64,000 bases of DNA from Rikenellaceae bacterium (GTDB lineage: Bacteria > Bacteroidota > Bacteroidia > Bacteroidales > Rikenellaceae), in assembly GCA_045613745.1 (NCBI GenBank), contig JAZLBP010000010.1, forward strand, positions 87,136-151,135, written 5' to 3'. Below the pieces are notes generated by a model that was not told where the DNA came from, made no database searches, and was given only the letters and a program-made list of their open reading frames with translations. This document shows positions 161-45,670 of this stretch, piece by piece. Positions within the stretch are counted from its first letter, which is position 1, and every line of letters begins with the position of its first letter. The position numbers were made by a program, and so were the translations under genes.

Positions 161-616
161 ATGCCCGCTCCCATCACAATCTACACCGACGGCTCATCGA
201 GGGGTAACCCCGGACCGGGTGGCTATGGTGTTGTGTTGATTTGTCCGCCATACCGCAAGGAGCTCAGCGCGGGCTATCGTCGCACAACCAACAACCGTAT
301 GGAGCTGCTGGGTGTGATTGTAGGCTTGGAGGCGTTGAAGTTCGAAGGTTCGGACGTAACCATTTACAGCGACTCGAAATATGTGGTCGATGCTGTGAGT
401 AAGGGTTGGGTCTATGGCTGGGAGCGCAAAGGCTTTGCCGGCAAGAAGAATCCCGACTTGTGGGCTCGTTTCCTACGCGTGTTCCGCCGACACAAGGTAC
501 GTTTCGTGTGGATTAAGGGTCACGCCGACAATGTCGAGAATGAGCGTTGCGACCGCCTTGCAGTTGCCGCCGCCGAGGGTGGGAATCTGCTTGAAGACTT
601 CGGCTACGAGGAATAA
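161..616 (+). CDS. rnhA: Ribonuclease HI
   Basis: 151 aa. IYTDGSSRGNPGPGGYG..., TNNRMEL, YSDSKYV and KGHADNVENERCD are typical RNase H type 1 motifs. Confidence 0.92.
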   Translation: MPAPITIYTDGSSRGNPGPGGYGVVLICPPYRKELSAGYRRTTNNRMELLGVIVGLEALKFEGSDVTIYSDSKYVVDAVSKGWVYGWERKGFAGKKNPDLWARFLRVFRRHKVRFVWIKGHADNVENERCDRLAVAAAEGGNLLEDFGYEE

Positions 617-736
617 TGTGCCTAATAAGGTGATTTCTGCGTTAAGCTCGTTCTTCAAATCCTCACATACGCCCAAGTATGGTGCGGTTTGTCGAACATC
701 GCAAGCCTTGAAATCCCTCTTATTATACACATTATT
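612..736 (+). repeat. Structured ~120-nt 3'-UTR repeat, copy A (after rnhA)
   Basis: Conserved core shared with 11125-11248, 19197-19320 and 43031-43147 (reverse-complemented there). Outer arms AATAATGTG/CACATTATT pair perfectly and include the rnhA stop codon (614-616). The strand given is that of the upstream gene. Confidence 0.8.
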
Positions 737-751
737 AAATAACAGCTAAAC

Positions 752-788
752 AAAAGGACTATCCACACAAGGACAGTCCTTTTATTTT
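752..788 (+). terminator. Intrinsic terminator after rnhA and repeat A
   Basis: AAGGACTATCC-loop-GGACAGTCCTT hairpin followed by a T-run. Confidence 0.6.
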
Positions 789-857: not shown

Positions 858-2099
858 TTATTTTGTGCGGATCTTGTGACCAGCTACTGCGAAGTAGAGG
901 ATGAACAAGAAGCAAGGCAAGCACAGCCAGTAACCTACTTGTGCGCTGAAAGCCGATGCCAACAGACCGAACAGGGGAGGGAATACTGCACCACCTGCGA
1001 TACCCATAGTCAGCAGAGCCGAACCGTTTTTGGTAAATTTACCGAGGTCTTTGAGCGACAAGGGCCAGATAGCGGGAGCACCCATCGAGCAACCGAATGC
1101 TACAACCAGCAGCAACCAGGGAGCCATCTCGGGGAACAGGATAATACCCAGCGAACCCAGAGCACCAATCGACGAGCAGAGTTTCAGAGCTGTCTCTTGG
1201 CTCATAACTTTGGGGATGCAGATTACACCCAGGATGTAACCGAGCATCATACCGAAGCTGGGGAACCAGATAAGCAGCGAGTTGCCCAGAATCTTGATGT
1301 TATCCAAAGTCTCGTTCATACCTACGAACTCCGAAGCGGTGTTCAGCGACATAGTCTCAACGCCGGTGTAGATAAACAGAGCCAAAGCACCCATAATAGC
1401 GTGGGGGAATTGAGTAATCTTGGTTTTGCCAGCAGCGTAGCCACTCTCAGCAACCGACGACTCCTCGCCCTCACCCTCAGCTTTAACCTCGGGAAGGGGT
1501 GCAATCAGAGTCAGAACACCCAGCAGGATGAAGATACCCATAATAATAAAGAAGGGGGTAACCATTTGCGAGGGAGCGGTGATTTTCTCGCCAATGCCCA
1601 GAACTTGCATCAGGAACGAGAAGAATACGATTGCTACGGGGTAAGCCAGCTTGTTGCAGATACCCATAACGCAGATACGTTTTGCAGCAGTGTCGATGGG
1701 GCCGATAACCGAGATGTAGGGGTTAGCGGTTGCGTTCAGGAACGCGTTACCGATACCACCAACAAATGCCGACACATAGAACAGAATCAGACCCGATTGA
1801 CCGAGTTTAGCAGCCCAAGCGTACAGAGCGAACGATACGGCAAAGAAAACAAACGACAGAGCCATTGTTTTTTGGTAGCCGATTTTTTTGATGGTTGCAG
1901 TCGCAGGCATAGCGAACAGCAAGAACGGCAGGAACGACAGACCCAGTACCAGGTAACCGAGCGATTTGTTGATACCGTAGAGTGCATTCAGAGGACCAGC
2001 CAAGAAGCCGTTGATACCGAACGCGAAGCCAATAGCAAAGAACATCAGACCGATGAACGCAATAGCCAGGCCAAAGCTTTTTTGTTTAGCTTGTGTCAT
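858..2099 (-). CDS. MFS sugar transporter (FucP / glucose-galactose permease family)
   Basis: 413 aa, about 12 TM segments. The N-terminus SFGLAIAFIGLMFFAIGFAFGINGFLAGPL is typical of FucP/GluP-type MFS permeases. Confidence 0.8.
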   Translation of the reverse strand: MTQAKQKSFGLAIAFIGLMFFAIGFAFGINGFLAGPLNALYGINKSLGYLVLGLSFLPFLLFAMPATATIKKIGYQKTMALSFVFFAVSFALYAWAAKLGQSGLILFYVSAFVGGIGNAFLNATANPYISVIGPIDTAAKRICVMGICNKLAYPVAIVFFSFLMQVLGIGEKITAPSQMVTPFFIIMGIFILLGVLTLIAPLPEVKAEGEGEESSVAESGYAAGKTKITQFPHAIMGALALFIYTGVETMSLNTASEFVGMNETLDNIKILGNSLLIWFPSFGMMLGYILGVICIPKVMSQETALKLCSSIGALGSLGIILFPEMAPWLLLVVAFGCSMGAPAIWPLSLKDLGKFTKNGSALLTMGIAGGAVFPPLFGLLASAFSAQVGYWLCLPCFLFILYFAVAGHKIRTK

Positions 2100-2140
2100 A
2101 ATCTTTTGATAATAGGTTTATGAATTAGTTGAATTGTTTC

Positions 2141-8379: not shown

Positions 8380-8486
8380 TCCGAAAAAAGGATTAACTTT
8401 GCGGTCGCAAAATCGCCTCACAAGGGGCTGAAATTGCAAAAGTTGTATTATGAGGGCGAGCAAAATTCAAAAAGCACCTTGTAAGA
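8380..8486. repeat. Degenerate relative of the ~120-nt structured repeat (copy E)
   Basis: Same length and shared blocks with copy B (AAGGATT, TTGCG, TGAGGGCGAGCAAAA at the same offset, AAA..CACC), but the central hairpin and closing helix are not preserved. Confidence 0.3.
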
Positions 8487-8499
8487 CAGCTTTCAAGTT

Positions 8500-8574
8500 C
8501 GGGGTGTAGCGCAGCCCGGTTAGCGCACCTGCTTTGGGAGCAGGGGGTCCCGCGTTCGAATCGCGGTACCCCGA
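8500..8574 (+). tRNA. tRNA-Pro (anticodon TGG)
   Basis: CGGGGTG acceptor pairing with TACCCCG, anticodon loop CTTTGGGAG, T-loop GTTCGAATC. Followed by a terminator hairpin. Confidence 0.9.
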
Positions 8575-8728
8575 CACAAAAGAAAGGCCTATCCAAGTTT
8601 TGGGTAGGCTTTTTTAGTATGTTGATTTTCAGCCCAATAATAATAATACAAAAAGCCGCTGAAATATTTGGAATTACTACTCCTTATTACTATTTTGGGG
8701 GAAAATAATCAACCTAACACACTTTACT

Positions 8729-10378: not shown

Positions 10379-11062
10379 ATGGGAAACAAAATCAACGACC
10401 CTATCGCGCGACTGATGGGACTGCGATACAAATCGCACCCCTGGCACGGAATCGAAGTGGGCGACGACGCACCTAATGTCATCACCGCTTTCATCGAAAT
10501 GGTGCCTACCGACACCGTAAAATACGAACTCGACAAGGTGAGCGGTTACATCAAAATCGACCGACCGCAAAAGTACTCGAACGTTATCCCCGCACTATAT
10601 GGTTTCGTTCCGCAAAGTTTCTGCGGCGAGAGCGTGGCAAGCTACTGTATGCAGCAGAGCGGACGCGAGGACATCGTTGGTGACAGCGACCCGCTGGATA
10701 TCTGCGTGCTGACCGAAAGGGACGTTTCGCACGGCGACATCATCGTCAACGCCCGCCCCATCGGAGGTTTCCGTATGTTGGACGGCAACGAGGCCGACGA
10801 CAAAATCATCGCAGTGTTGAGCCACGACGTAACTTACAGCGGCTACACCGACATCTCGGAACTGCCCCGAGGCGTGGTAAACCGTCTGAAACACTACTTC
10901 CTGACCTACAAGGATATGCCCGACGCAGGCGAAAACCAAAAGAAGAAGGTTGAAATCATCGACACCTACGGCCGCGACGAGGCTTGTGAAATCATCAACC
11001 GCTCGCTCGAAGACTACAAGTGTCACTTCGATAGTTTGGACGACATCCTCCGCCGCGTGTAG
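10379..11062 (+). CDS. ppa: Inorganic pyrophosphatase (family I)
   Basis: HPWHGIEVG, VKYELDK and DPLDICVL motifs. Confidence 0.88.
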   Translation: MGNKINDPIARLMGLRYKSHPWHGIEVGDDAPNVITAFIEMVPTDTVKYELDKVSGYIKIDRPQKYSNVIPALYGFVPQSFCGESVASYCMQQSGREDIVGDSDPLDICVLTERDVSHGDIIVNARPIGGFRMLDGNEADDKIIAVLSHDVTYSGYTDISELPRGVVNRLKHYFLTYKDMPDAGENQKKKVEIIDTYGRDEACEIINRSLEDYKCHFDSLDDILRRV

Positions 11063-11080
11063 GATACAAAATTCAATAAC

Positions 11081-11109
11081 AAAAGGCTGCCCCTCGGGAC
11101 AGCCTTTTT
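11081..11109. terminator. Bidirectional terminator between ppa and zupT
   Basis: AAAAGGCTGCCCCTCGGGACAGCCTTTTT hairpin with A/T runs on both sides. Confidence 0.6.
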
Positions 11110-11124
11110 CGTTTATTTCTTATT

Positions 11125-11248
11125 TAGAAATTGTATAAGAAGAGGATTTTCAAGGCTTGCGAAGCCCGAAAATGCGCAGTTTACTTGGCGTAAATGAGCA
11201 TTTTGAGGGCGAGCATAACGTAGAAAATACCTTTTTATACGATTTCTA
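11125..11248 (-). repeat. Structured ~120-nt 3'-UTR repeat, copy B (after zupT)
   Basis: Outer arms TAGAAATTG/CGATTTCTA (8 Watson-Crick pairs plus 1 G-U). The central hairpin TTTAC/GTAAA is a compensatory variant of CATAC/GTATG. Ends 2 nt from the zupT stop codon (11250-11252). Confidence 0.8.
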
Positions 11249-11249
11249 C

Positions 11250-12050
11250 CTACATCATCAAAATCACACTCACCGCCATAATCGCCATACCCGCAATCAA
11301 GCCATACATCTCGATATGGTTTTCGCCATACTCGCGGGCGGCGGGAAGCAGCTCGTCGAGCGAGATGTAAATCATAATACCCGACACCGCAGCCAACACA
11401 ATATTCATCGTCAGCGCCGACAGCAAGGGCATAAGCACTACAAATCCGACCAGCGCGCCCACAGGCTCGGCCAGACCCGATGCAAACGAGTACCAGAAGG
11501 CTTTGCGACGGTTGCCCGTAGCCGCAAGGATAGGCACCGACACCGCTACGCCCTCGGGGATGTTGTGGATTGCAACCGCAACGGCAACAGCCAGGCCCGT
11601 AGTAGCCGACTCATAGGCCGACATAAAGGTGGCGATACCCTCGGGGAAGTTGTGGATTGCGATGGCGAGAGCCGTAACCAAGCCCATACGTTGCAGTTTA
11701 TGGTGGTTATTAGCGTCGTTAAGTTCCTCGACCGAGTGCAGTTCGTGAGGGTTTTGCACCTCGGGCACAAGGCGGTCGATAATCATCGCAAGCAGCAGTC
11801 CTCCGAACATTGCAAGCACAGCATAGGTTGTGCCCGTCTGCTGGCCGAACTGCTCTTCGAGCGCCGATTGCGAGTCGGCAAAGAGTTCGCAAAACGACAC
11901 ATAGAGCATAACGCCCGCCGACAGACCCAACGCAAACGAAATGAAGCGTCGGTTGGTCGAACGAGTCAATATGGCAATCAGACTGCCCACGCCCGTAGCC
12001 ATTCCGGCAAAGAGCGACAGCACCAAAGCATATACAACAGCCGAGGTCAT
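11250..12050 (-). CDS. zupT: ZIP-family zinc transporter
   Basis: 266 aa. HNFPEGIATF and HNIPEGVAVS are ZIP signature repeats. Confidence 0.88.
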   Translation of the reverse strand: MTSAVVYALVLSLFAGMATGVGSLIAILTRSTNRRFISFALGLSAGVMLYVSFCELFADSQSALEEQFGQQTGTTYAVLAMFGGLLLAMIIDRLVPEVQNPHELHSVEELNDANNHHKLQRMGLVTALAIAIHNFPEGIATFMSAYESATTGLAVAVAVAIHNIPEGVAVSVPILAATGNRRKAFWYSFASGLAEPVGALVGFVVLMPLLSALTMNIVLAAVSGIMIYISLDELLPAAREYGENHIEMYGLIAGMAIMAVSVILMM

Positions 12051-12085
12051 AGTGTGGGGTTGGGAAAGCGACTAAATGCGTGTGA

Positions 12086-12598
12086 TTAGTTGACCTTCAT
12101 AGGCATCTCGACCTTACACAGATCGTCGTTTGCCTTGTCAATTTTGGCAGCCAGCTCCGCTTTGAACTTAACGATTTTCTCGCGCAGGGTTGCATCACCG
12201 TTAGCCATAATTTGGCAAGCGAGGATAGCAGCGTTGCGTGCGCCGTCCAGAGCTACGGTTGCCACGGGAATACCTGCGGGCATTTGGAGAATCGACAGAA
12301 TGCTGTCCAATCCCTCAATCGAGTTCGACGAACGGATGGGTACACCGATTACGGGCAGAGGGGTCGAGGCAGCAATTACACCGGGCAAGTGAGCTGCGCC
12401 ACCTGCACCTGCGATGATAACCTCGATACCGCGCTCGGCAGCGGTCTCGGCAAACTCCGCCACGCGACCGGGAGTGCGGTGAGCCGACAGAGCCAATACT
12501 TCGTAGGGAACCTCCATCGAGTCGAGCAGCTCGCAAGCGCCCTGCATAACCTTCAAATCCGAGGTACTTCCCATAATAACTGTTACACGTGCTTTCAT
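12086..12598 (-). CDS. purE: 5-(carboxyamino)imidazole ribonucleotide mutase
   Basis: [17 protein letters not shown] and [10 protein letters not shown] motifs. Confidence 0.92.
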
Positions 12599-15849: not shown

Positions 15850-15870
15850 TCAAGCGTGCACAAAGATTTA

Positions 15871-15914
15871 ACATTCGGGTCTGTCGGGAATCACCGACAG
15901 ACCCGAATGTTTTT
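15871..15914 (+). terminator. Intrinsic terminator
   Basis: 17-bp stem ACATTCGGGTCTGTCGG/CCGACAGACCCGAATGT followed by TTTTT. Confidence 0.75.
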
Positions 15915-16290
15915 AATATATGCAGAATGAAAAAGGCCAAATTGTTTGGCATAAGTCGTTTTATGACCAAAGAAAAAAGCCATACGCCAATAAAGGGGTA
16001 CAGCTTTATAATAAGTCATTAGAGGGCGGCGTTTCCTCTATTATTCGTACCGAATACTCGCCATCGACCGCAGGGTATTCTAACCTTTTGCCATCCTACG
16101 ATGGTATTGTATATTCTCATTTTGTCATTTAATAGAAACCAAACATAGGACGCAACTGTCTATTAAACAATCAGCCATACCCCTTTATGGGATATGGCTG
16201 ATTGTTTTTCCGCCGGTCTGCGGTGGCATAGCCACTTTTGCTACTGCCGTTCTAACCCCTGAACTTTTGGGATAAGGGCGGCAGCCAAAT

Positions 16291-16332
16291 CCGCCGGCTT
16301 GCGGCTGGTTCTTTTTGATGACTCAAAAAGAA
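16291..16332 (-). repeat. Two-hairpin module (GC hairpin plus the perfect palindrome TTCTTTTTGA-N4-TCAAAAAGAA), copy 1, after ubiA-like
   Basis: A near-identical module occurs at 30022-30070 in the same orientation relative to its upstream gene (yidD). Confidence 0.65.
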
Positions 16333-16336
16333 TATA

Positions 16337-17218
16337 TTACAGCACCATTGCAAGAATGGCGAAGGTGGCGAATACCAAACTTGCGATACCGTTCAAAGTT
16401 CCAAATGCGATACCGATATTTTTTTGTTGGGTGGGGGTTACGAGCAGGTGTTCGAGCACCAGAACTGCGCCAAACAAACCTGCGCCAATCCAATACCAAA
16501 GACCAAATCCGCACAACAGTCCGAAAAGGGCTACTGCGCCAAGGCTTATAACGTGCAGGGCAATGCTGATGGAGAGTGCGCCCCAACCCGAGAAACGTGC
16601 GGGGATAGAGTGCAGGCCGCGAGCGCGGTCAAACTCTGCATCCTGCATCGCATAAATGATGTCAAATCCGCCAACCCAAGTGAGTACCAGCGCCGATAAC
16701 ACCAAAGGCTCTGCAGCAAACTGACCCGTAACGGCAATGTAGGCACCCACAGGAGCGATTCCGAGCGCAAGGCCCAACACGATGTGGGCGAGTGCAGTAA
16801 AGCGTTTGCAGTAGCTGTATCCCATAACCACGAGCAGCGCCACGGGCGACAGGCACAAGGTCAGAGGGTTGATGGTTGCGGTCACGGCAACGAACAGCAA
16901 GGCATTAACAATCACAAAGGTGAGGGCTGCGCGAGGCGAAATCTGTCCCGACGGAATCTCACGCGAAGCGGTGCGGGGATTCTCGGCGTCGATGTGTCGG
17001 TCTGCCCAGCGGTTGAATCCCATTGCGGTGTTACGCGCCAGCACCATACAGGCCACAACCTGCACCAACAGCACCCAATCGAACACAGCCGAGGTAGAAG
17101 TCAGTGCCCAAGTGTAGCCCACCAGAGCAAAAGGCATAGCAAAGATGGTGTGCGAGAATTTCACCATCGACAGGTATTTACTTATTGTAGAGGTCATAAT
17201 GATTTTAATTTCCGACAA
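16337..17218 (-). CDS. UbiA-family aromatic polyprenyltransferase (4-hydroxybenzoate polyprenyltransferase-like)
   Basis: 293 aa, about 8 TM segments. NTAMGFNRWADRHIDAENPRT and YAMQDAEFD are Asp-rich UbiA motifs. Confidence 0.8.
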   Translation of the reverse strand: MSEIKIIMTSTISKYLSMVKFSHTIFAMPFALVGYTWALTSTSAVFDWVLLVQVVACMVLARNTAMGFNRWADRHIDAENPRTASREIPSGQISPRAALTFVIVNALLFVAVTATINPLTLCLSPVALLVVMGYSYCKRFTALAHIVLGLALGIAPVGAYIAVTGQFAAEPLVLSALVLTWVGGFDIIYAMQDAEFDRARGLHSIPARFSGWGALSISIALHVISLGAVALFGLLCGFGLWYWIGAGLFGAVLVLEHLLVTPTQQKNIGIAFGTLNGIASLVFATFAILAMVL

Positions 17219-17253: not shown

Positions 17254-19041
17254 ATGAAAAATATACGCAATTTCTGCATCATCGCCCATATCGACCACGG
17301 CAAGAGTACACTCGCCGACCGTATGATTGAAAAGACTAACACTCTGTCGGAAAGAGAGTTGCAAAGCCAAGTATTGGATGATATGGACCTCGAACGTGAG
17401 AAAGGTATCACCATCAAGAGCCACGCCATCCAGATGGAGTACATCAAGGACGGACAAAAATATGTCCTCAACCTGATTGACACTCCTGGACACGTTGACT
17501 TTTCGTATGAGGTGTCGCGTGCCATCGCTTCGTGCGAGGGTGCGTTGCTGGTTGTGGACGCCACACAAGGTATTCAGGCACAAACCATCTCGAACCTCTA
17601 CTTGGCGCTGGAAAATGACCTCGAAATCATCCCCGTGCTCAACAAAATCGACGTTGACTCGGCAATGGTGGATGAGGTGAAGGACCAAATCGTCGATCTG
17701 ATTGGCTGCAACCCCGACGACATTCTGCTGGCAAGTGGTAAGACAGGTCAAGGCGTTATGGAGGTGTTGGACGCTATCGTGGAGCGCATCCCCGCCCCCA
17801 AAGGCGACGAGGAGGCACCCCTGCAAGCGCTGATTTTCGACTCGGTGTTCAACTCTTTCCGCGGTATCATCGCCTACTTCCGTGTGATGAACGGCACCCT
17901 GCGCAAAGGCGACAAGGTGAAGTTTGTCAACCTCGGAAACGAATACACAGCCGACGAAATCGGTGTGCTGAAACTCAAACTCAGCCCCCGCGACGAGGTG
18001 AAAGCTGGTGACGTAGGATACATCATTTCGGGTATCAAGAACTCGGCCGATGTGAAGGTGGGTGACACCATCACACACGTTGCACGCCCCTGCGACGAGG
18101 GTATCGACGGTTTCGAGAACGTGAAGCCTATGCTCTTTGCAGGTGTCTATCCCGTTGACACAAGCGAGTATGAGGACCTGCGTGCATCTATCGAAAAGCT
18201 GCAACTCAACGACGCATCGCTCACCTTTGAGCCCGAGAGCTCGCTGGCGCTGGGATTCGGTTTCCGTTGCGGTTTCTTGGGTCTGCTTCACCTGGACATT
18301 ATTCAGGAGCGTCTGTACCGCGAGTTCGATATGGACGTTATCACCACCGTACCCAACGTTTCGTATCGCGTGACCACAACCAAAGGCGAGGTCAGCGAGG
18401 TACACAACCCCTCGGGACTGCCCGAGCCCACGCTCATTCAGAAGATTGAAGAGCCCTACATTATGGCTCAAATCATCACCAAGTCGGACTATCTGGGTAG
18501 CGTAATCAAGCTGTGTATCGACCGTCGTGGCACTCTTCTGAACCAGACATTCCTCACCCAAGATCGTGTGGAGGTGAACTTCGAGATGCCGTTGAGCGAG
18601 ATTGTGTTTGACTTCTACGATAAGCTCAAAAGCCTCTCGCGTGGCTATGCGTCATTCGACTACCACACAACAGGTTACAAGGATAGCAAACTCGCGAAAC
18701 TCGATATTCTGCTCAATGGCGAGCCCGTGGATGCGCTCAGTTCGCTTATCTACTACGACCACGCCTACGACTTCGGTCGCCGTATGTGCGAGAAGCTCAA
18801 AGAGCTCATCCCGCGCCAACAGTTTGACGTAGCAATTCAGGCTGCCATCGGCTCGAAGATTATCGCTCGCGAGACCGTGAAGGCTGTGCGTAAGGACGTA
18901 ACCGCCAAGTGTTATGGTGGTGACATCAGCCGTAAACGCAAACTGCTGGAGAAACAGAAGAAAGGTAAGAAACGTATGCGCCAAATCGGTAACGTAGAGG
19001 TGCCTCAACAAGCGTTCCTTGCCGTGCTTAAAATGGATTAA
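17254..19041 (+). CDS. lepA: Elongation factor 4
   Basis: [28 protein letters not shown] and NKID GTPase motifs. The 595-aa length is typical for LepA. Confidence 0.95.
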
Positions 19042-19090
19042 TTCTACTGTACTTTTGGACGCCCAAAAAGCGGGCGCAAACCGCCAGATA

Positions 19091-19144
19091 AAAAGTCATC
19101 CCTACCTCGCTTGTGAGGTAGGGATGACTTTTTTATGAATATTT
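19091..19144. terminator. Terminator between lepA and rlmH
   Basis: AAAAGTCATCCCTACCTC-loop-GAGGTAGGGATGACTTTTTT. Confidence 0.7.
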
Positions 19145-19196
19145 ACCATTCTCATTCTGTTCTGCGACACCCAACAGCACAATAGAACTAAAAATA

Positions 19197-19320
19197 TAAA
19201 ACGCGCATAACAAGAGGAAATTCAAGGCGCGCGAGCGTGAGAAACCGCAGCATACTTGGGCGTATGTGAGGATTTTGAAGGCGAGCGCAACGCCGAAGTT
19301 GCCTTGTTAGGCGTGTTTTA
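19197..19320 (-). repeat. Structured ~120-nt 3'-UTR repeat, copy C (after rlmH)
   Basis: Outer arms TAAAACGCG/CGTGTTTTA. The right arm contains the rlmH stop codon (19318-19320). Confidence 0.8.
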
Positions 19321-19791
19321 CTCGTGGTGGTATGGTTCGCCGCGGAGAATGGTAAACGCGCGATAAAGTTGCTCTGTAAAGATGGGACGGATGATTTGGT
19401 GCGAGAAGGTCATTCGGCTGAGCGAGAGTTTCTCGGCGGCGCGGGCGTAAACCTCCTTCGAAAAGCCATAGGGGCCACCCACGATGAACACCACGCGCTT
19501 GACACCGCTGTTCATACGCTTCTGCATCCACGAGGCAAACTCCAACGATGTGGGTTGCGCACCCTTGTCGTCAAGCAACACAACATAGTCGTCGCCCGAA
19601 AGCTGACGCAAAATCATCTCGCCCTCGGCACGTTTCTGCGCATCCTCGCTCATATTCTTGGAGTTACGAATGTCGGGCAGCTCGGTCAGGGTAAACTTGA
19701 TGTAGCGCGAAATACGACCTGCGTACATTCGCGTCAACTCGGCCACCTGCGCAGAGTCAGTTTTGCCTACGACAAGAAAATCGATGCTCAT
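19318..19791 (-). CDS. rlmH: 23S rRNA (pseudouridine1915-N3)-methyltransferase
   Basis: 157 aa SPOUT protein ending GGPYGFS...LSLSRMTFSHQIIRPIFTEQLYRAFTILRGEPYHHE. Confidence 0.9.
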   Translation of the reverse strand: MSIDFLVVGKTDSAQVAELTRMYAGRISRYIKFTLTELPDIRNSKNMSEDAQKRAEGEMILRQLSGDDYVVLLDDKGAQPTSLEFASWMQKRMNSGVKRVVFIVGGPYGFSKEVYARAAEKLSLSRMTFSHQIIRPIFTEQLYRAFTILRGEPYHHE

Positions 19792-19794
19792 AAT

Positions 19795-21168
19795 CTATTC
19801 CAATACTTCGGGATTAGGCAACACAAGGTCGTTGTTCCACTCGCCCTCGGCAAAGCGATAGACCGCGGGACGAAGGGTATCCAATTCGTGGAGCAGTTGA
19901 TACGATTTGTAGAGGTTGTAGCCATTGCCACCGCCCGCTGCAAGACTCCACGCCACAACACACGAATGGTTGCGGGTGCGACGTTGCATTGCGAGGGTGC
20001 GATAGAGCACCTCGTCGAGATAGTCGGGGTTGTTGAGCACAGTGCCGTTGTGACGAGCGCGGCTGCCACCCTTGGCGTCGGCATTAATCGCGGGGCAGTC
20101 GATGACATACATGCCCACTTTGTCACACGCACGATAGAACGCAATCTGCGCAGGCATCGAAAGAACAATGGTGTTGTAACCCTTGCGTTTGAGTTGGCGC
20201 ACCTGCTCCTCCATCGGAATATTGTAGTTGGGAGCAAACTCCACAGCACGCATCTCAACGGGCTCGTCGTTACGCATAAGCACGCCCGACGCATTGGCTG
20301 TACGAGCAGTGTAAGTAGTTGTACCCCAGCCTACTGACCAAGGCACATACTCCGTAATGCTGCCATATTGTTTGATATACATTGTCAGCGCGTAGAGGTT
20401 GGGGTTCTCGGCGCTCCAAAGGTATTTGGCAGTCGAATAGATGATGTTGTGGAAACGTACGGTGTCGCGCTTGCCGGGAGCCATATCCAGCTCGCGCAGG
20501 TCGTAGGTTTTGAGTTTACCCTTGGGGTCGTAGATGTCGAAACCAACCGAGAGATGTTGGTCGGCACGCGACGAGTTACGCACCACGATATGCAAATCCA
20601 AAAGGCCGTGATTGGCGGTCGAATCGGGCGAGGTTTTGAGGTCGAAATCCTCGATATAAACCTTGGGTTGCGACATAATGTGGCAGTTGCCGCCCATAGC
20701 AAGCAGACCACCCTTGTACATAGCCTCAATGGGTTGCACAGCACCCGCCTCGCAAGCCTCAATTCGGATACTGTTTTGGCCGTCGATAAGGAAGGGCGAG
20801 ATGCACACCTCCGAAGGGGTATAGGCATCGGACGAACTACCCGCAAGGCGGTCATTTACAAAAAGTTGATAAGCACCCGCACCACCCTCGCTACGGAAGA
20901 ATACATTGCGGTCACCATAGGCATAAGGAGCGTAAAATCGCACCGCACACACGCCGTTTTGATTGGCGTCGGCAGGAATGCTATTGAAGTATTGCGAATT
21001 GATGATTGCGCCAGCGGCAGCGTCCTCGCGGAGCTCATAGCTAAAAAACTCTGTGCGCGGAGGTTGAACCGAAGGGTTGGCCACCTGCTGCGCAGAAGCT
21101 CCGTTATGGGTCGCGGCCATAAACAAAAAGGCCGTCGAAAGTATCAAAATAAGTCTTGTATGCGACAT
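19795..21168 (-). CDS. GH2-like (beta-galactosidase N-terminal half) secreted protein lacking catalytic residues
   Basis: Collinear with LacZ through ...[17 protein letters not shown]...LRPAVYRF, then stops. WSLGNE is replaced by WSLAAG. Start set at [27 protein letters not shown] (signal peptide). Confidence 0.7.
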
Positions 21169-29334: not shown

Positions 29335-29799
29335 ATGACTCTGTCGCACATAAATGAAAACGAGATTCTACCTCCCCGCGAAATGCATGAATCATTCTGC
29401 GAGGAGGTAGAACTTTGCAACTCGCTCTCCAAGCGCGAGATACTGCGCACACCCGCCGTCATCGACTCGCTGTTTGCAAAGGGACGCAGGGGCACCGTGG
29501 CACCCATTCGTTATGTGTGGCAAGTAATTCGTGGCACCGAGCAAACCTCCGCCGAGGGTGTGGGTATTATGTTCTCGGTACCCAAAAAGTTCTTCAAGCG
29601 TGCCAACAAGCGCAACCTGTTGCGTCGTCGCATGAAGGAGAGCTATCGTCAGGCAAAGCACGACCTCGTTCGCGAGGCTGCCGAGAAGGGCATCTCACTC
29701 AACATCGCCCTGATTTACACATCAAAAGAGATTTCAGATTACAACACCATCAACAATGTCGTGTGCAGAATTTTGGAGCAGATTCGCGAGCGTCTGTAA
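29335..29799 (+). CDS. rnpA: Ribonuclease P protein component
   Basis: [26 protein letters not shown] motif. The true start may lie further downstream. Confidence 0.85.
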
Positions 29800-30016
29800 A
29801 CGTATATTGGTGTTTCCCGCCATCGCACTGGTACGTTTCTACCAGCTATGCATATCACCTCTGACACCTCCGTCGTGTCGATTCACCCCAACGTGTTCAC
29901 AATACGCCATCCAGGCCCTGCGCAAGCACGGCATATTCAAAGGCGGATGGCTCACAATAAAACGCATAGCTCGTTGCCACCCTTGGGGCGGCAGCGGCTA
30001 CGACCCCGTGCCGTAG
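29756..30016 (+). CDS. yidD: Membrane protein insertion efficiency factor
   Basis: [23 protein letters not shown]...[13 protein letters not shown] motif. Confidence 0.9.
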
Positions 30017-30021
30017 TGCAT

Positions 30022-30070
30022 GTTCTTTTTGAGTCATCAAAAAGAACCAAAAAATGACCCGCAGACCGGG
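30022..30070 (+). repeat. Two-hairpin module (palindrome GTTCTTTTTGA-N4-TCAAAAAGAAC plus a GC hairpin), copy 2, after yidD
   Basis: Starts 6 nt after the yidD stop codon and matches 16291-16332 in reverse complement. Confidence 0.65.
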
Positions 30071-30076
30071 GGTGTA

Positions 30077-30118
30077 AATACAAAAGGAGTCCCACTTTGC
30101 AGGACTCCTTTTGTATTT
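30077..30118. terminator. Bidirectional terminator between yidD and mtaB
   Basis: AAATACAAAAGGAGTCC-loop-GGACTCCTTTTGTATTT. Confidence 0.7.
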
Positions 30119-41507: not shown

Positions 41508-42107
41508 TTAGTAGTCAGTTACATCAATCAACTTATTGAGGATTGCATAGACCGTAAGACCTGATATTGAATTAATACCCAACTTGTGGGAAATGTTCTT
41601 GCGGTGGGTAATGACTGTGTGTACCGAGAGGTTGAACTCGTCGGCTATCTCCTTGTTGGTTTTACCACGAGCAACGGCGGTCAGGATGTCGCGCTCTCGG
41701 GCCGACAGTTCATCGCTTTCGGTGCGCAAAGGTGAGCCAGCATTTTGCTCAACCACCGACGACAGGCGCGCAAGGATGGTTTCGGAACTGTCGTAAAGTC
41801 CCACAACGCCATCGAAGCTGCGGACAAGCGACTCATCGAGCGGTAGACCGCAATTCAGCGCCAACACGGGAACTCCGCGACCACTCAATCGGCGGCGCAA
41901 CTCACCACGCTCGTCCCACGACGCAACGGCGGGATCCACCAGCACGACATCGCACGCGCCAAACTTGGCATCGGAGTAGAAGTCGAGATTGGGGAGCGTT
42001 CCGCAGGGGACAAACTCGCGACTGCGCAACAAAATCTCGCTCACACCCGCCGCAACAATCTCGGAGGGAGTGATGATAAGTACATTGTATTTGGTGCGGC
42101 TATTCAT
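41508..42107 (-). CDS. LuxR-family HTH regulator with a degenerate receiver-like N-terminal domain
   Basis: LSARERDILTAVARGKTNKEIADEFNLSVHTVITHRKNI motif. The N-terminal domain lacks the DD pocket, and the conserved T/S and K positions look substituted. Confidence 0.8.
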   Translation of the reverse strand: MNSRTKYNVLIITPSEIVAAGVSEILLRSREFVPCGTLPNLDFYSDAKFGACDVVLVDPAVASWDERGELRRRLSGRGVPVLALNCGLPLDESLVRSFDGVVGLYDSSETILARLSSVVEQNAGSPLRTESDELSARERDILTAVARGKTNKEIADEFNLSVHTVITHRKNISHKLGINSISGLTVYAILNKLIDVTDY

Positions 42108-42798
42108 CCTTTTCGAGTTTTGCTACCAGCGGAATGAGTATTCGGTTTTCTATTTCGGTGTGGCGGTCGAGGTCCTTCTCGATGCGGAAGATGTCCTCCA
42201 ACACCGCGTGACGCTCGGTAACGGCCGAACTCTCGGGCAGGTATTTAAGTACAATATTTTTGATGTCATTGAGTTTGTCCTCGATGTTGCCGTGATTGTG
42301 GCCAAACTGGTCGATGTTGTAGCCATCGACACGCGCGCCACCCGAAATAAGCGACTCAATGTAGGGGAATACGGTCTCCTCCTCATAGGCAAAGTGGTTG
42401 TCAACCTCGGCCTGATAGTCGTCGAAGAAGCGGTCGATTACGCGGCGGTTGGTGACATCCAGCGATGCAACCATTGCGTGGATATGCTCGTGCAGACGGG
42501 GGAAACACACCTCGGCATAGTAGCGGTGCGAAGCGCGCAGGTAGGCCACCAAATGAGGTAGGTCCTCGCGGCGAAGCTCCTCGATGTGAGGCACATATCC
42601 ATCAAAAGAATAGACATTGCAAATCATCAGAAACAGTTCGGGCGACAGGCCATAGCGGCGGCAGATGTCGTCAACAGTGGCATCGCCAAAACCCAGACGG
42701 ATACCCAATCGCTCGACGATTCCGAGCAACATCAGTTCGGCTGAAATCATATCGGCGAGTTTGCATCGTCGGTTGTATGGAGCAAAACGTATTGTCAT
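42100..42798 (-). CDS. Hemerythrin (HHE) domain protein, RIC/ScdA-like
   Basis: H...YY..E, HEHIH, EEETVFPYIE, HNHGNIE and HTEIEN are His/Glu ligand-like motifs. Overlaps the luxR-type gene by 8 nt. Confidence 0.7.
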   Translation of the reverse strand: MTIRFAPYNRRCKLADMISAELMLLGIVERLGIRLGFGDATVDDICRRYGLSPELFLMICNVYSFDGYVPHIEELRREDLPHLVAYLRASHRYYAEVCFPRLHEHIHAMVASLDVTNRRVIDRFFDDYQAEVDNHFAYEEETVFPYIESLISGGARVDGYNIDQFGHNHGNIEDKLNDIKNIVLKYLPESSAVTERHAVLEDIFRIEKDLDRHTEIENRILIPLVAKLEKDE

Positions 42799-42985
42799 TG
42801 TGTGTGTCGTATTTTTGCAAAGTTAGTGTTTTTTTTCGAAACTCCGACTCACAATATTGAGGTATTCGGCGGTGTCAAATACCAACATCGTGCGATTGTG
42901 CGGCACGCGCCAAGGCCCTATCTTTGCAGTGTTATTTTAGTTGAATGGTGATTTTGATTATTCTGTTGGAATCTTGATTCCATCG

Positions 42986-43020
42986 AAAAAGAGTTGTCGG
43001 GATGACAACTCTTTTTGTTT
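42986..43020. terminator. Bidirectional terminator downstream of feoAB and repeat D
   Basis: AAAAAGAGTTGTC-GGGAT-GACAACTCTTTTT, followed by GTTTT. Confidence 0.7.
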
Positions 43021-43030
43021 TATATAATAA

Positions 43031-43147
43031 GAACGTGTATAAGAAGAGGGCAAGGCTTGCGAAACGCGAGAAACCGCAGCATACTTGGGTGTATGTGAAG
43101 ATTTCGAGCGAAAACGTAACGCAGAAATCACCCTCTTAGGCACGTTC
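43031..43147 (-). repeat. Structured ~120-nt 3'-UTR repeat, copy D (after feoAB)
   Basis: Outer arms GAACGTG/CACGTTC abut and overlap the feoB stop codon (43147-43149). Confidence 0.8.
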
Positions 43148-45525
43148 TACATAAATAAGCCAGCGATTATAAATGTAAGCCAAGCCATTAACCAAGCAAT
43201 AGCAGTGTTGTAAAGCACCGTAAACCACGCCCATCGGCGGCTTCCCGTTTCGTGGCGCACCGTAGCCACTGTGGCTATGCACGGGAAGAACAGCAGCACG
43301 AAGATCATAAACGACAGTGCCGAGGCGGGGGTAAAGCCGCTTGACGAGGCAAGCGAAGTGGCAAGTCCCTCTTCGGAGTCGGCACCACACAATACGCCAA
43401 GTGTACTCACCACCAGCTCCTTGGCGGGGATGCTTGTCAACAGGGCCACACTTGCGCGCCAGTCGAGTCCGAGGGGTTTCATTATGGGTTCGATAACTCG
43501 GCCCACGCGACCCACAAACGAGTACTCTTGTTGTGCGGCTACGGGATCAGTCGAAGCATCGAGGGTTGCAGCATCCAAGCGAGGGAAGTAGCCCAGCACC
43601 CATATTATAATGGTAGCCAGCAGAATGACCGTACCGATTTTACGCAGGTATTGTTCGCACTTGTCCCACATATGTTTGAGGGTAGCCAAGAGTGTCGGCA
43701 CGCGATAGGGCGGAAGCTCCATTACAAAGGGTGTTTCGTCCTTATGGAACTTAATGGCGCGTAACAGACGGGCCGTAATACCCGCAACCGCGATACCGCA
43801 AAGGTACAATCCCACCAACACCAGCGGAGCCGCATCGGGGAAGAATGCACCAGCAAGCAGAATATAGACGGGGAGTCGCGCACTGCACGACATAAACGGA
43901 GTGATGAGGATTGTTATGAGTCGGCTGCTACGGCTCTCGATGGTGCGCGTCGCCATAATCGCGGGCACGTTACATCCGAAGCCCATCAGCAAGGGGATGA
44001 ACGACTTGCCGTGCAGACCCATTCGGTGCATCACCCTATCCATAATGAATGCCGCGCGAGCCATATAGCCCGAGTCCTCCATCAGCGAGATAAACAAGTA
44101 TAGTATCAAGATATTGGGCAGGAACACAGCCACGCTTCCCACACCGCCGACAATTCCATCGACCAGCAGGCTACGCAGCCAACCCTCGGGTACAATCGCC
44201 CCCAGCCACTCGCCAAGCAGGGCAAAAGCCATCTCAATCCACGCCTGCGGATATGCACCAAGCTTGAAGGTGGCAAAGAACATCAGCCACATCACAAAAA
44301 CAAAAATCGGGAAGCCCAGCCATTTGTTGGCAACCAGACGGTCGATACGGCGGGTACGGCGATTGGTGTCACGCGTGGGCTCGGTCATAGTCTCGGCCAG
44401 TGCACCCGCAATGAAACCATACTTTGCGTCACTGACTGCCATCTCGACATCCTTGCCCGTGCGTCGTTCGACAATCGCGGCCGCCTTGACACCCTCGGCA
44501 ACCCACTCATCGAAATTGCGGCACGCCGACAGTACCGACAGCGCCTCCTTGTCACCCTCAATAAGTTTGACAGCCCAATAGCGGACGGGAAACTGCTTTG
44601 GCAGGTCGTCGCACGGACGAATCATTGCTGCAAGCTCGGCTATCTGCTCCTCCATCACACTGCCATAGCCGATGTGGATGTGGCGGGCAACGGAGTTGGT
44701 ACCCTCGAACATCTCGATTACGGTATCGAGCAGCTGTTCCAAACCTCTGCCACTGCGCGCAACGGTGGGCACCATAGGCACACCCATCATAGCGCCAAGC
44801 GTTTGGTAATCAAGCGTAGCACCGCTTGCGGCCAACTCGTCGTACATATTGAGAGCCACCACGGTACGTTGGTTCAGGTCGATAAGTTCGGTTGTGAGGT
44901 AGAGGTTGCGCTCGACATTGGAGGCCACCACCGAGTTTACAATAACGTCGGGCATCTGTTCGTAGAGGTGACGACGCACATAGACCTCCTCGGGCGAGTA
45001 GGCCGACAGCGAATAGGTACCCGGCAGGTCGGTGATATTAATTTTATAGCCCTTGTAGGAAAAGTGTCCCGTTGTGGCATCCACCGTCACGCCGCTATAG
45101 TTGCCGACGTGTTCGCTTGCACCCGACAGAGCATTGAACAGCGAGGTCTTGCCACTATTGGGATTGCCGACCAGCGCCACATTGATTACGTTTTGGCGTG
45201 TAGCCTTGCGCATTCGGCGGAAACAATCCACCACCGAACACTCGCCACACATCGAGTCGCAGCCCACGGTAGCCACAGCCTCAACTTGAAGTTGAGCCTC
45301 GGCCTCGGGCAACACCTCGATCATTGCGGCCTCGCTACGGCGCAACGACACATCGTAGCCCATAACGGTATATTTCACAGGGTCGCTGAACGGCGAGTCG
45401 AGCACCGACAACACCTTTTGTCCTCGCACGAAGCCCATCTCCATAATGCGCTTGCGAAAACCTCCGTGTCCCGACACTCGGACAATTACGGCAGATTCGC
45501 CGTTTTTGAGTTCCGACAGTTTCAT
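43147..45525 (-). CDS. feoB: Ferrous iron transporter, fused FeoA-FeoB
   Basis: N-terminal FeoA (LSELKNGESAVIVRV), G-domain GNPNSGKTSLFN, and a polytopic C-terminus. Start set at the ATG at 45525. Confidence 0.93.
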   Translation of the reverse strand: MKLSELKNGESAVIVRVSGHGGFRKRIMEMGFVRGQKVLSVLDSPFSDPVKYTVMGYDVSLRRSEAAMIEVLPEAEAQLQVEAVATVGCDSMCGECSVVDCFRRMRKATRQNVINVALVGNPNSGKTSLFNALSGASEHVGNYSGVTVDATTGHFSYKGYKINITDLPGTYSLSAYSPEEVYVRRHLYEQMPDVIVNSVVASNVERNLYLTTELIDLNQRTVVALNMYDELAASGATLDYQTLGAMMGVPMVPTVARSGRGLEQLLDTVIEMFEGTNSVARHIHIGYGSVMEEQIAELAAMIRPCDDLPKQFPVRYWAVKLIEGDKEALSVLSACRNFDEWVAEGVKAAAIVERRTGKDVEMAVSDAKYGFIAGALAETMTEPTRDTNRRTRRIDRLVANKWLGFPIFVFVMWLMFFATFKLGAYPQAWIEMAFALLGEWLGAIVPEGWLRSLLVDGIVGGVGSVAVFLPNILILYLFISLMEDSGYMARAAFIMDRVMHRMGLHGKSFIPLLMGFGCNVPAIMATRTIESRSSRLITILITPFMSCSARLPVYILLAGAFFPDAAPLVLVGLYLCGIAVAGITARLLRAIKFHKDETPFVMELPPYRVPTLLATLKHMWDKCEQYLRKIGTVILLATIIIWVLGYFPRLDAATLDASTDPVAAQQEYSFVGRVGRVIEPIMKPLGLDWRASVALLTSIPAKELVVSTLGVLCGADSEEGLATSLASSSGFTPASALSFMIFVLLFFPCIATVATVRHETGSRRWAWFTVLYNTAIAWLMAWLTFIIAGLFM

Positions 45526-45553
45526 CTTTTGTTTATCACTATTTTTGCTGATG

Positions 45554-45561
45554 CAAAAATA
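45554..45561 (-). promoter_or_regulatory. -7 box TATTTTTG upstream of feoAB
   Basis: TAnnTTTG on the minus strand, about 28 nt upstream of the ATG and embedded in a direct repeat. Confidence 0.45.
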
Positions 45562-45670
45562 CCCACTTTTGGAGTGTGCATCAATACCCACATTTAGGTA
45601 TTTTAGGTGGTAATGCTATTGAATTTCGCGAAAAAGATGTAACTTTCGGGCACAAAACAAAACATTACAA

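Follow-up and report, generated by a model that had tools for sequence, protein, structure and literature searches.

A widespread family of palindromic extragenic repeats with unusual strand and position rules in gut Rikenellaceae

A single-copy RAYT (Y1 transposase) gene flanked by its repeats is the hallmark of the REPIN systems of Pseudomonas and E. coli, and compensatory evolution has been reported for ERIC elements, the 127-bp repeats (also called IRU) of Enterobacteriaceae and Vibrio. In the attC sites of integrons the bottom strand is favoured for folding through base skew, and the R' (5'-RYYYAAC-3') and R'' (5'-GTTRRRY-3') sequences are conserved, with a near-invariant AAC/GTT triplet (PMC5027507). 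We describe here a family of hairpin repeats of ~120 nt that shares features with all three. The repeats lie in a 64-kb stretch of DNA from a Rikenellaceae bacterium (contig JAZLBP010000010.1, the whole stretch being referred to as the window), where an initial annotation had taken them for structured, non-coding elements with compensatory base changes. The family is real, undescribed and widespread, and is made up of palindromic extragenic repeats with unusual strand and position rules.

The initial annotation had listed four full copies in the window, and all four were recovered in place. A profile built from them matched exactly four full places (nhmmer, E = 1e-38 to 1e-41), and a covariance model built from 48 full copies of the wider family scored the same places at 114-140 bits. 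Three occurrences of the 33-nt core were found in the window at up to 3 mismatches, compared with none in 100 dinucleotide-preserving shuffles. Pairwise identity among the four full copies was 71-78%. A fifth, degenerate copy had been placed, at full length, at about 8380-8486; a degenerate member does exist there, but its significant similarity is limited to 8432-8500 and it is internally deleted. The copies are listed here with their coordinates in the window, strand, neighbours and scores.

Copy A, 607..741 (hairpin ~612-736), minus strand: 3' end overlaps the TAA stop codon 614-616 of the RNase H gene 161-616 (+); covariance model 135.3 bits, nhmmer E = 1.5e-41, fold -42.6 kcal/mol, z = -3.8.
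Copy B, 11120..11253 (hairpin ~11125-11248), plus strand: ends 2 nt short of the TAG stop codon 11250-11252 of the ZIP transporter gene 11250-12050 (-); covariance model 139.7 bits, fold -49.2 kcal/mol, z = -7.9.
Copy C, 19192..19325 (hairpin ~19197-19320), plus strand: overlaps the TAA stop codon 19318-19320 of rlmH 19318-19791 (-); covariance model 125.5 bits, fold -51.4 kcal/mol.
Copy D, 43024..43154 (hairpin ~43030-43148), plus strand: overlaps the TAG stop codon 43147-43149 of feoB 43147-45591 (-); covariance model 114.5 bits, fold -44.3 kcal/mol, z = -5.5; 4 nt of the family consensus are missing.
Copy E, internally deleted, 8432..8500, plus strand: outer arms and 3' third kept, directly 5' of tRNA-Pro 8500-8575; covariance model 29.1 bits, E = 2e-4, 67 model positions absent; weak partial nhmmer match at 8446-8493 (profile positions 84-131, E = 0.003).

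The genes abutted by copies A to D matched the Pfam families RNase_H, Zip, SPOUT_MTase (rlmH) and FeoB. One further weak covariance-model match, at 15866-15915, was an ordinary terminator hairpin and was rejected as a family copy. The reading of the repeats as non-coding held. The copies differ by indels and no reading frame is conserved in the family. The overlapping open reading frame (ORF) 414-749 had a codon score of -0.31, which is non-coding; ORF 473-730 (-) scored 0.126, slightly over the coding cut-off, and was called non-coding because of the indels between copies and not on its codon score; ORF 42958-43143 was too short for codon scoring.

A degenerate pattern of the core was scanned over one genome per bacterial species; loci of other genomes are cited here by L numbers. 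At least 118 loci were obtained, nearly all of them from Alistipes, Rikenellaceae or Tidjanibacter metagenome-assembled genomes (MAGs), mostly of ruminant guts. When the covariance model was run on the window and 99 of the loci, it gave 131 matches. The repeats of the window belong to a large undescribed family in gut Rikenellaceae (Alistipes-like). Proteins carrying the name 'Rikenellaceae bacterium' share 99-100% identity with the RlmH of the window, and the Alistipes finegoldii protein shares ~66%. Among the first 80 core-pattern matches, at least 14 sat at the very start of a contig, as expected of a repeat that breaks assemblies. Strain variants with another apical loop exist, for example ACTAATGCGT in L141-L143. 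Weak matches (47-48 bits) were seen in two MAGs of other phyla, a Deltaproteobacteria MAG (L017) and a Holosporales MAG (L044), and these are more likely to be mis-binned contigs or chance similarity than true spread.

The annotation had placed the motif in no known RNA family, and Rfam 15 agreed: at gathering scores the whole window gave three tRNAs only and none on the repeats, and permissive scans of copies C and D (E up to 10) gave nothing on the repeat. A known RNA family was rejected on both results. No match to the family was obtained by blastn in plasmid and phage collections, and a plasmid or phage origin was set aside on that ground. A Neisseria-type uptake sequence or Correia element was likewise rejected, since the DNA uptake sequence (DUS) and uptake signal sequence (USS) motifs were not found in the window.

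Each window copy folds as one long imperfect hairpin (-43 to -51 kcal/mol, z = -3.7 to -7.9), and this hairpin is maintained by compensatory change along the whole element. In a mutual information analysis of 116 distinct copies, every strong pair fell on a single diagonal (i+j = 135 or 136), spanning model positions 8/127 to 65/71, and many of these pairs had three or four Watson-Crick types (pair 11-124, for instance: GC 45, AT 35, TA 19, CG 8). For the resulting 43-pair hairpin, 87.5% of the cells in the 131-sequence alignment were paired, against 65.2% in shuffled alignments and 38-47% in slid registers. Both-sided changes were found in 39 of the 43 pairs, and the covariation score was 0.519 compared with 0.170 for shuffled alignments, a value that no shuffle out of 500 attained. 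Inverted repeats of ~20 nt form the outer arms (GAAGTTGTATAACAAGAGG / CCTTGTTAGACAACTTC), and pairing drops to background past one flanking A-T pair. Single-base register shifts alternate between both hairpin arms, seven more pairs lie outside R-box-like heptamers, and a tandem GA/AG at positions 49-50/86-87 was present in 56 copies.

Compensatory changes had originally been reported in a central hairpin and a closing helix, and both were correct on the alignment. Copy B has TTTAC/GTAAA as its apical stem where the other three have CATAC/GTATG, and the variable pair of TAAnAAG/CTTnTTA is T-A in copy A, G·T in B, C-G in C and G-C in D. The covariation is therefore real and abundant, but the two helices are not separate: one forms the apical end and the other the base of the same hairpin.

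Structural constraint acts on one strand only. On the strand read in the initial annotation, non-Watson-Crick cells comprised 338 G·T versus 58 A·C, and 374 G·A versus 18 C·T. Free energies favoured the same strand in 105 of 113 copies when RNA parameters were used and in 112 of 113 when DNA parameters were used, so that the better-folding strand had been picked at the outset. Ratios as lopsided as these for G·T and G·A indicate that the single-stranded form of the folding strand is under structural selection, and such a skew seems hard to ascribe to mutation bias.

The position of the repeats follows an equally strict rule. Genes were called with a codon model trained on the loci, which in the window separated Pfam-confirmed genes from shadow ORFs. 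None of 112 full copies lay inside a gene, and 85 of the 112 had an opposite-strand gene end on their 3' side. In 62 copies the opposite-strand stop codon was located -12 to +27 nt from the last paired base (mode 0 to +1), and it overlapped the element in 20 of those 62. The closest same-strand gene end to any 5' end was 54 nt away, and the stop-adjacent orientation stood at 62 to 0. All four window copies obeyed the rule (RNase H, ZIP, rlmH and feoB). Because the 3' end sits at an opposite-strand stop codon, it is the template (antisense) strand of the abutted gene that folds best; the complementary hairpin present in the mRNA is weaker (-39 to -41 kcal/mol, z = -4 to -5). The upstream neighbour was a divergent gene start in 48 copies.

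Three of the four abutted window genes are on the minority strand, which had suggested that orientation is set by replication direction. The strand of most other genes at a locus served as proxy for replication direction: 40 copies agreed with it and 59 were opposed to it, and the idea was ruled out on these 99 copies. Orientation is tied to the abutted gene and not to replication direction. A three-frame stop trap was also rejected as the cause of the orientation: all frames were closed within 36 nt in 12 of 113 copies only, and many copies have an open frame. The 145 neighbouring genes held 207 Pfam families, each present at most 3 times, a diversity which argues against a cis-regulator of one gene class.

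Comparison of relatives showed turnover at these sites. Copies 96-99% identical to each other occur at different loci within one genome (L030/L042/L056, L004/L058, L008/L073 and L029/L060). Three states of the site behind rlmH were seen: occupied by the element (window, L120 and L121), occupied by an unrelated hairpin element, element X (L119, L122 and L123), and empty (L148 and L149, RlmH 92% and 83% identical). Element X is ~150 nt long and starts at the same base behind rlmH, with flanks ~95% identical. It was located at L119:1973-2135 and L122:1228-1385, and in the window at 30020-30110 (+) and 16110-16335 (-), behind ORF 29756-30016 and the UbiA gene 16337-17218. It starts 0-3 nt past stop codons and has a core GTTCTTTTTGAGYCATCAAAAAGAACC...AAAAAATGRCCCGCAGACCGGSGG followed by a GC hairpin; Rfam gave no match to it at gathering scores.

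At locus B, L141-L143 carry another subfamily of the repeat, with ~30 differences, next to an identical pyrophosphatase and between near-identical flanks; the differences in the inner stems were compensatory when compared by eye. Different subfamilies also lie between identical flanks in L150/L151. Orthologous copies of different species were closer to each other than their flanking genes (99% vs 84% in L075/L081, and 97% vs 87-92% elsewhere). A tandem array of 4.3 units of 139 nt was found in L046, truncated copies were among the covariance-model matches, and short stretches like the stop-side arm of the element, read from the flanks, lie just past some full copies. The subfamily replacement, the high orthologue identity and the arrays and truncations are compatible with sites that are targeted repeatedly, with gene conversion among paralogues, or with both processes. 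No consistent target duplication was found. TA is frequent beside the stop-codon end of copies, which had suggested a TA duplication; TA was present on both sides in 15 of 107 copies, compared with ~14 expected, and this candidate was rejected as being at chance level.

Two further observations concern individual sites. At another orthologous site, one species has the element and another, behind the same gene end, a different palindrome, AATGAGACCAATGGG…CATTGGTCTCATT (L067:7469-7605 vs L080:6184-6316). In L032, L035 and L094, copies are cut near model position 100 and are interrupted or followed by a common sequence, CGATGGGCTGTAC, which looks like the end of another mobile element inserted in or beside the hairpin.

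On the side away from the stop codon, the element is usually followed by a terminator-like GC-rich hairpin, which in 39 of 96 copies lay no more than 40 nt off; this hairpin is often preceded by an A-tract and followed by a T-tract. With a stop codon on one side and this hairpin on the other, the element fills a short 3' untranslated region (3' UTR). A related, element-free contig (L139) has a 15-nt 3' UTR ahead of the same terminator. The hairpins beside the four window copies were as follows.

748..787: terminator-like hairpin on the side of copy A opposite the RNase H stop codon, with A-tract, stem and T-tract.
~11081..11109: terminator-like hairpin AAAAGGCTGCC..GGACAGCCTTTTT between the pyrophosphatase gene 10379-11062 and copy B, -16.6 kcal/mol, missed by a simple scanner.
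~19089..19134 (hand-counted): terminator-like hairpin GTCATCCCTACCTC..GAGGTAGGGATGAC with A/T tracts, between lepA 17254-19041 and copy C, ~60 nt off.
42986..43016: terminator-like hairpin 14 nt from copy D.

The hairpin near copy D can serve no gene but feoB, as the neighbouring gene 42100-42798 lies on the minus strand too. Short GC hairpins with a loop of the type GGGAGTGTCTAAAAAACTTGTTAGACACTCCC were seen 8-10 nt past the element on the terminator side in L086, L034, L054, L065, L099, L020 and others. They recur across species, often without a clear T-tract, and constitute either a third family of repeats or a terminator type that is conserved. Between the terminator and the next gene, short tandem motifs such as GCTAATGGCTAATAGC... 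and GGGAGTTTAGGGAATTTAAGG... were observed in L056, L005, L050, L086, L063, L059, L089, L091 and L048; motifs of this kind lie upstream of gene starts at many Rikenellaceae loci.

Of the 50 genes predicted in the window, 46 were scanned, and every one that gave a match was a housekeeping gene. Long shadow ORFs run opposite real genes in the window (858-2123, 11157-12089, 19324-20337 and elsewhere); 876-2123 (+), for example, is a shadow ORF opposite the major facilitator superfamily (MFS) gene 858-2099 (-). The codon model and Pfam tell these apart, and ORF lists alone mislead in this genome. In L132 (2085-3456, the orthologue of the window from ~745 on), foreign DNA begins ~6 nt past the end of the orthologue of copy A and encodes an integrase (Arm-DNA-bind_5, Phage_int_SAM_5 and Phage_integrase). 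An association of the repeats with this integrase was rejected, as it had no homologue near any other copy examined.

In mechanism, the closest analogues are REPIN-RAYT systems and attC sites, each of which is recognised as a single-stranded DNA hairpin formed by one particular strand. Like REP/REPIN sequences, the repeats are extragenic (none of 112 copies in genes), non-coding and numerous, and keep a hairpin by compensatory change; a believed action on single strands, the lack of target duplication, clusters or tandems and the retention of orthologous sites are also shared. They differ in that the unit is one ~120-nt hairpin with conserved internal loops and not a pair of 20-40-nt REPs, the hosts are Bacteroidota and not Pseudomonas or E. 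coli, the GTAG/CGTC 5' tag was not recognised at the repeat ends on inspection of the flanks, and no RAYT was found among the scanned window genes or the 145 neighbours (64-kb window, 8-kb loci). To our knowledge, so strict a stop-adjacent antisense orientation has not been reported in REPINs.

ERIC elements are the closest in size and shape, being of near-equal length, imperfectly palindromic throughout and located in transcribed intergenic DNA near gene ends, and are unrelated by sequence and host. The ERIC2 primer sequence had no match in the window at up to 3 mismatches. ERIC elements occur in both orientations in another phylum than the Bacteroidota, and their constraint is usually read as mRNA structure, whereas the repeat is constrained on the strand complementary to the mRNA. 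Correia/NEMIS elements of Neisseria and RUP and BOX of Streptococcus are also small, non-autonomous, high-copy sequences with inverted-repeat ends that are often co-transcribed with their neighbours. Their terminal repeats are conserved and Correia elements have a TA duplication, whereas the arms of the repeat covary, without duplication and in fixed orientation.

With attC sites the repeats share variable sequence with conserved structure, adjacency to ORFs and a steadier antisense strand (105-112 of 113 copies). At ~120 nt the hairpin is within the attC range of 57-141 nt and close to the ~120-nt VCR-type sites of chromosomal integrons, and heptamers like the core and inverse core are present in one subfamily only. 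However, the AAC/GTT triplet is not conserved in the repeat (model positions 20-115: AT 40, CG 38, TA 18), and pairing extends past the R box. The alternating register shifts and the additional pairs depart from the canonical attC layout, in which extrahelical bases are on the L'' arm and an unpaired central spacer adjoins a 7-bp R box. There are no cassette arrays, attI or intI, and the copies are 8-24 kb apart beside core genes of conserved synteny. Membership in the attC class fails on the missing triplet conservation, cassette arrays and intI, and membership in the REPIN class on the size of the unit and on the failure to find a RAYT.

The best fit to the whole-length covariation, the one-strand constraint, the fixed orientation and place, the turnover and the lack of an ORF or promoter is a non-autonomous mobile hairpin repeat, REPIN- or ERIC-like with attC-like geometry, that propagates via one folded single strand; we give this about an even chance of being correct. 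Copying or recombination would act on the element in folded, single-stranded form, most simply as DNA, and would be carried out by a trans-acting, structure-recognising enzyme encoded elsewhere in the genome. Candidate enzymes are an HUH/Y1 transposase, as in REP/REPIN-RAYT and IS200/IS605, or a tyrosine recombinase, as for integron attC. Fixed orientation and position would arise from target choice by this machinery together with purifying selection in a compact genome. Within the host mRNA the element would be a passive, weaker 3'-UTR hairpin, which may add some 3'-end protection. A further-reaching reading, which we consider unlikely, is that Rikenellaceae have an undescribed single-strand-specific recombination or transposition system which recognises folded template-strand hairpins and inserts or exchanges them in the few bases between stop codon and terminator, with several unrelated families (this one and element X) competing for sites, as an integron- or RAYT-like system acting on 3'-UTR modules of core genes.

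The same position could be explained by a cis-acting 3'-UTR element of the host mRNA that serves 3'-end protection, termination or translation termination, as REP and ERIC do in enterobacteria. No layout is more frequent than one with the element between stop codon and terminator-like hairpin, the mRNA-sense strand folds well (-39 to -41 kcal/mol), orientation follows the neighbouring gene and not the replication proxy, and orthologous copies are better kept than flanking genes. We nevertheless consider this unlikely, since in the mRNA the G·U and G·A cells of the folding strand turn into mismatches, A·C in 338 cells and C·U in 374, and the mRNA-sense fold is the weaker one in 105 of 113 copies; moreover, the neighbouring genes have no common theme and the site is empty or occupied by an unrelated element in close relatives. 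If instead the folding strand itself were transcribed, the copies could be independent antisense small RNAs (sRNAs) that regulate the convergent gene across its stop region. Covariation with G·U and tandem G·A pairs is RNA-like, and the neighbour's stop region has its complement in the 3' end of 62 copies. However, the Bacteroidota -7 promoter motif TAnnTTTG had 14 matches in 93 upstream flanks, equal to the reverse strand and thus without enrichment, and an own promoter on the folding strand was rejected on this basis. In many copies a terminator-like hairpin with a T-tract lies 8-17 nt upstream, a divergent gene start is upstream in 48, no consistent T-tract follows the hairpin among the copies, and tandem arrays and truncated copies suit repeats better than genes. 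We regard antisense sRNAs as rather improbable. The initial proposal of a discrete structured RNA accordingly stands as far as a repeated, non-coding and covarying element absent from Rfam is concerned; the status of an RNA gene is unsupported for an antisense element behind a terminator-like hairpin and without a promoter motif.

Mobility need not involve a single strand. A classical miniature inverted-repeat transposable element (MITE), a deletion derivative of an insertion sequence (IS) moved in double-stranded form by a DDE transposase via terminal inverted repeats, would account for the ~20-nt inverted-repeat arms, the frequent flanking TA, the near-identical copies at separate loci and the internal deletion of copy E with its arms kept. 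It would not account for TA on both sides at chance level (15 of 107) and no target-site duplication, for arms that covary freely and are not conserved (pair 11-124), for pairing kept over the whole length on one strand only, or for an absolute stop-adjacent orientation (62 to 0), and no parent element with these ends was found in the ~0.9 Mb searched; we regard a MITE as no more probable than antisense sRNAs. The annotation had allowed that its repeats might be reclassified as IS- or MITE-like, and hallmarks of a mobile or concerted repeat were indeed found, but no known family or mechanism matched. Still less probable, in our view, is an integron-like site, in which a tyrosine recombinase would read an attC-like bottom-strand hairpin and exchange the DNA behind stop codons. 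The ~120-nt imperfect hairpin directly 3' of an ORF, its more stable bottom strand and the whole-element replacement at fixed sites agree with such a site, as does the main subfamily, whose top strand (GTCTAAC...GTTATAC) resembles RYYYAAC...GTTRRRY. Yet the AAC/GTT pair is C-G in about one third of copies and covaries (AT 40, CG 38, TA 18), seven more pairs lie outside the 'R box', bulges are on both arms as read from the pair register, the neighbours are conserved housekeeping genes and not cassettes, and no integrase was found in the scanned window genes, the insertion in L132 being unique.

Several results weigh against a mobile single-strand repeat. No transposase or recombinase was found among the 46 of 50 window genes scanned; no transposase or integrase was among the listed Pfam families of the 145 neighbours, and none was enriched beside copies. 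A search of ~0.9 Mb for a longer parent element, with the two arms flanking an ORF at a spacing of 0.2-4 kb, found none. A clean same-species pair of empty and filled alleles was not recovered: the same-species contigs found by exact-protein look-ups all bear the element or element X, a metagenome pattern for an empty locus A found nothing, and empty sites were obtained in more distant relatives only. The ends, the target site and the absence of duplication consequently rest on family statistics. Gene conversion, or homologous exchange among strains, could account for replacement at fixed sites without transposition, and the 71-78% identity among the window copies may mean that the family is inactive in this genome. 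Conservation of the apical part is biased by sampling, as the collection pattern fixed much of model positions 56-84, and sequence alone cannot tell single-stranded DNA from RNA.

Alistipes and other Rikenellaceae are abundant gut bacteria, and their non-coding DNA has hardly been explored. With four full copies in the 64 kb of the window, copies would number on the order of a hundred or more per genome if this density holds genome-wide. In practical terms, the repeats break metagenome assemblies, attract spurious ORF calls and mark strain-level variation at fixed sites. Covariation over the whole length, constraint on the strand complementary to the mRNA and an absolute stop-adjacent orientation form a trio that occurs in none of the classical bacterial repeat families compared here, and it points either to a new form of single-strand DNA mobilisation in Bacteroidota or to widespread antisense RNA.

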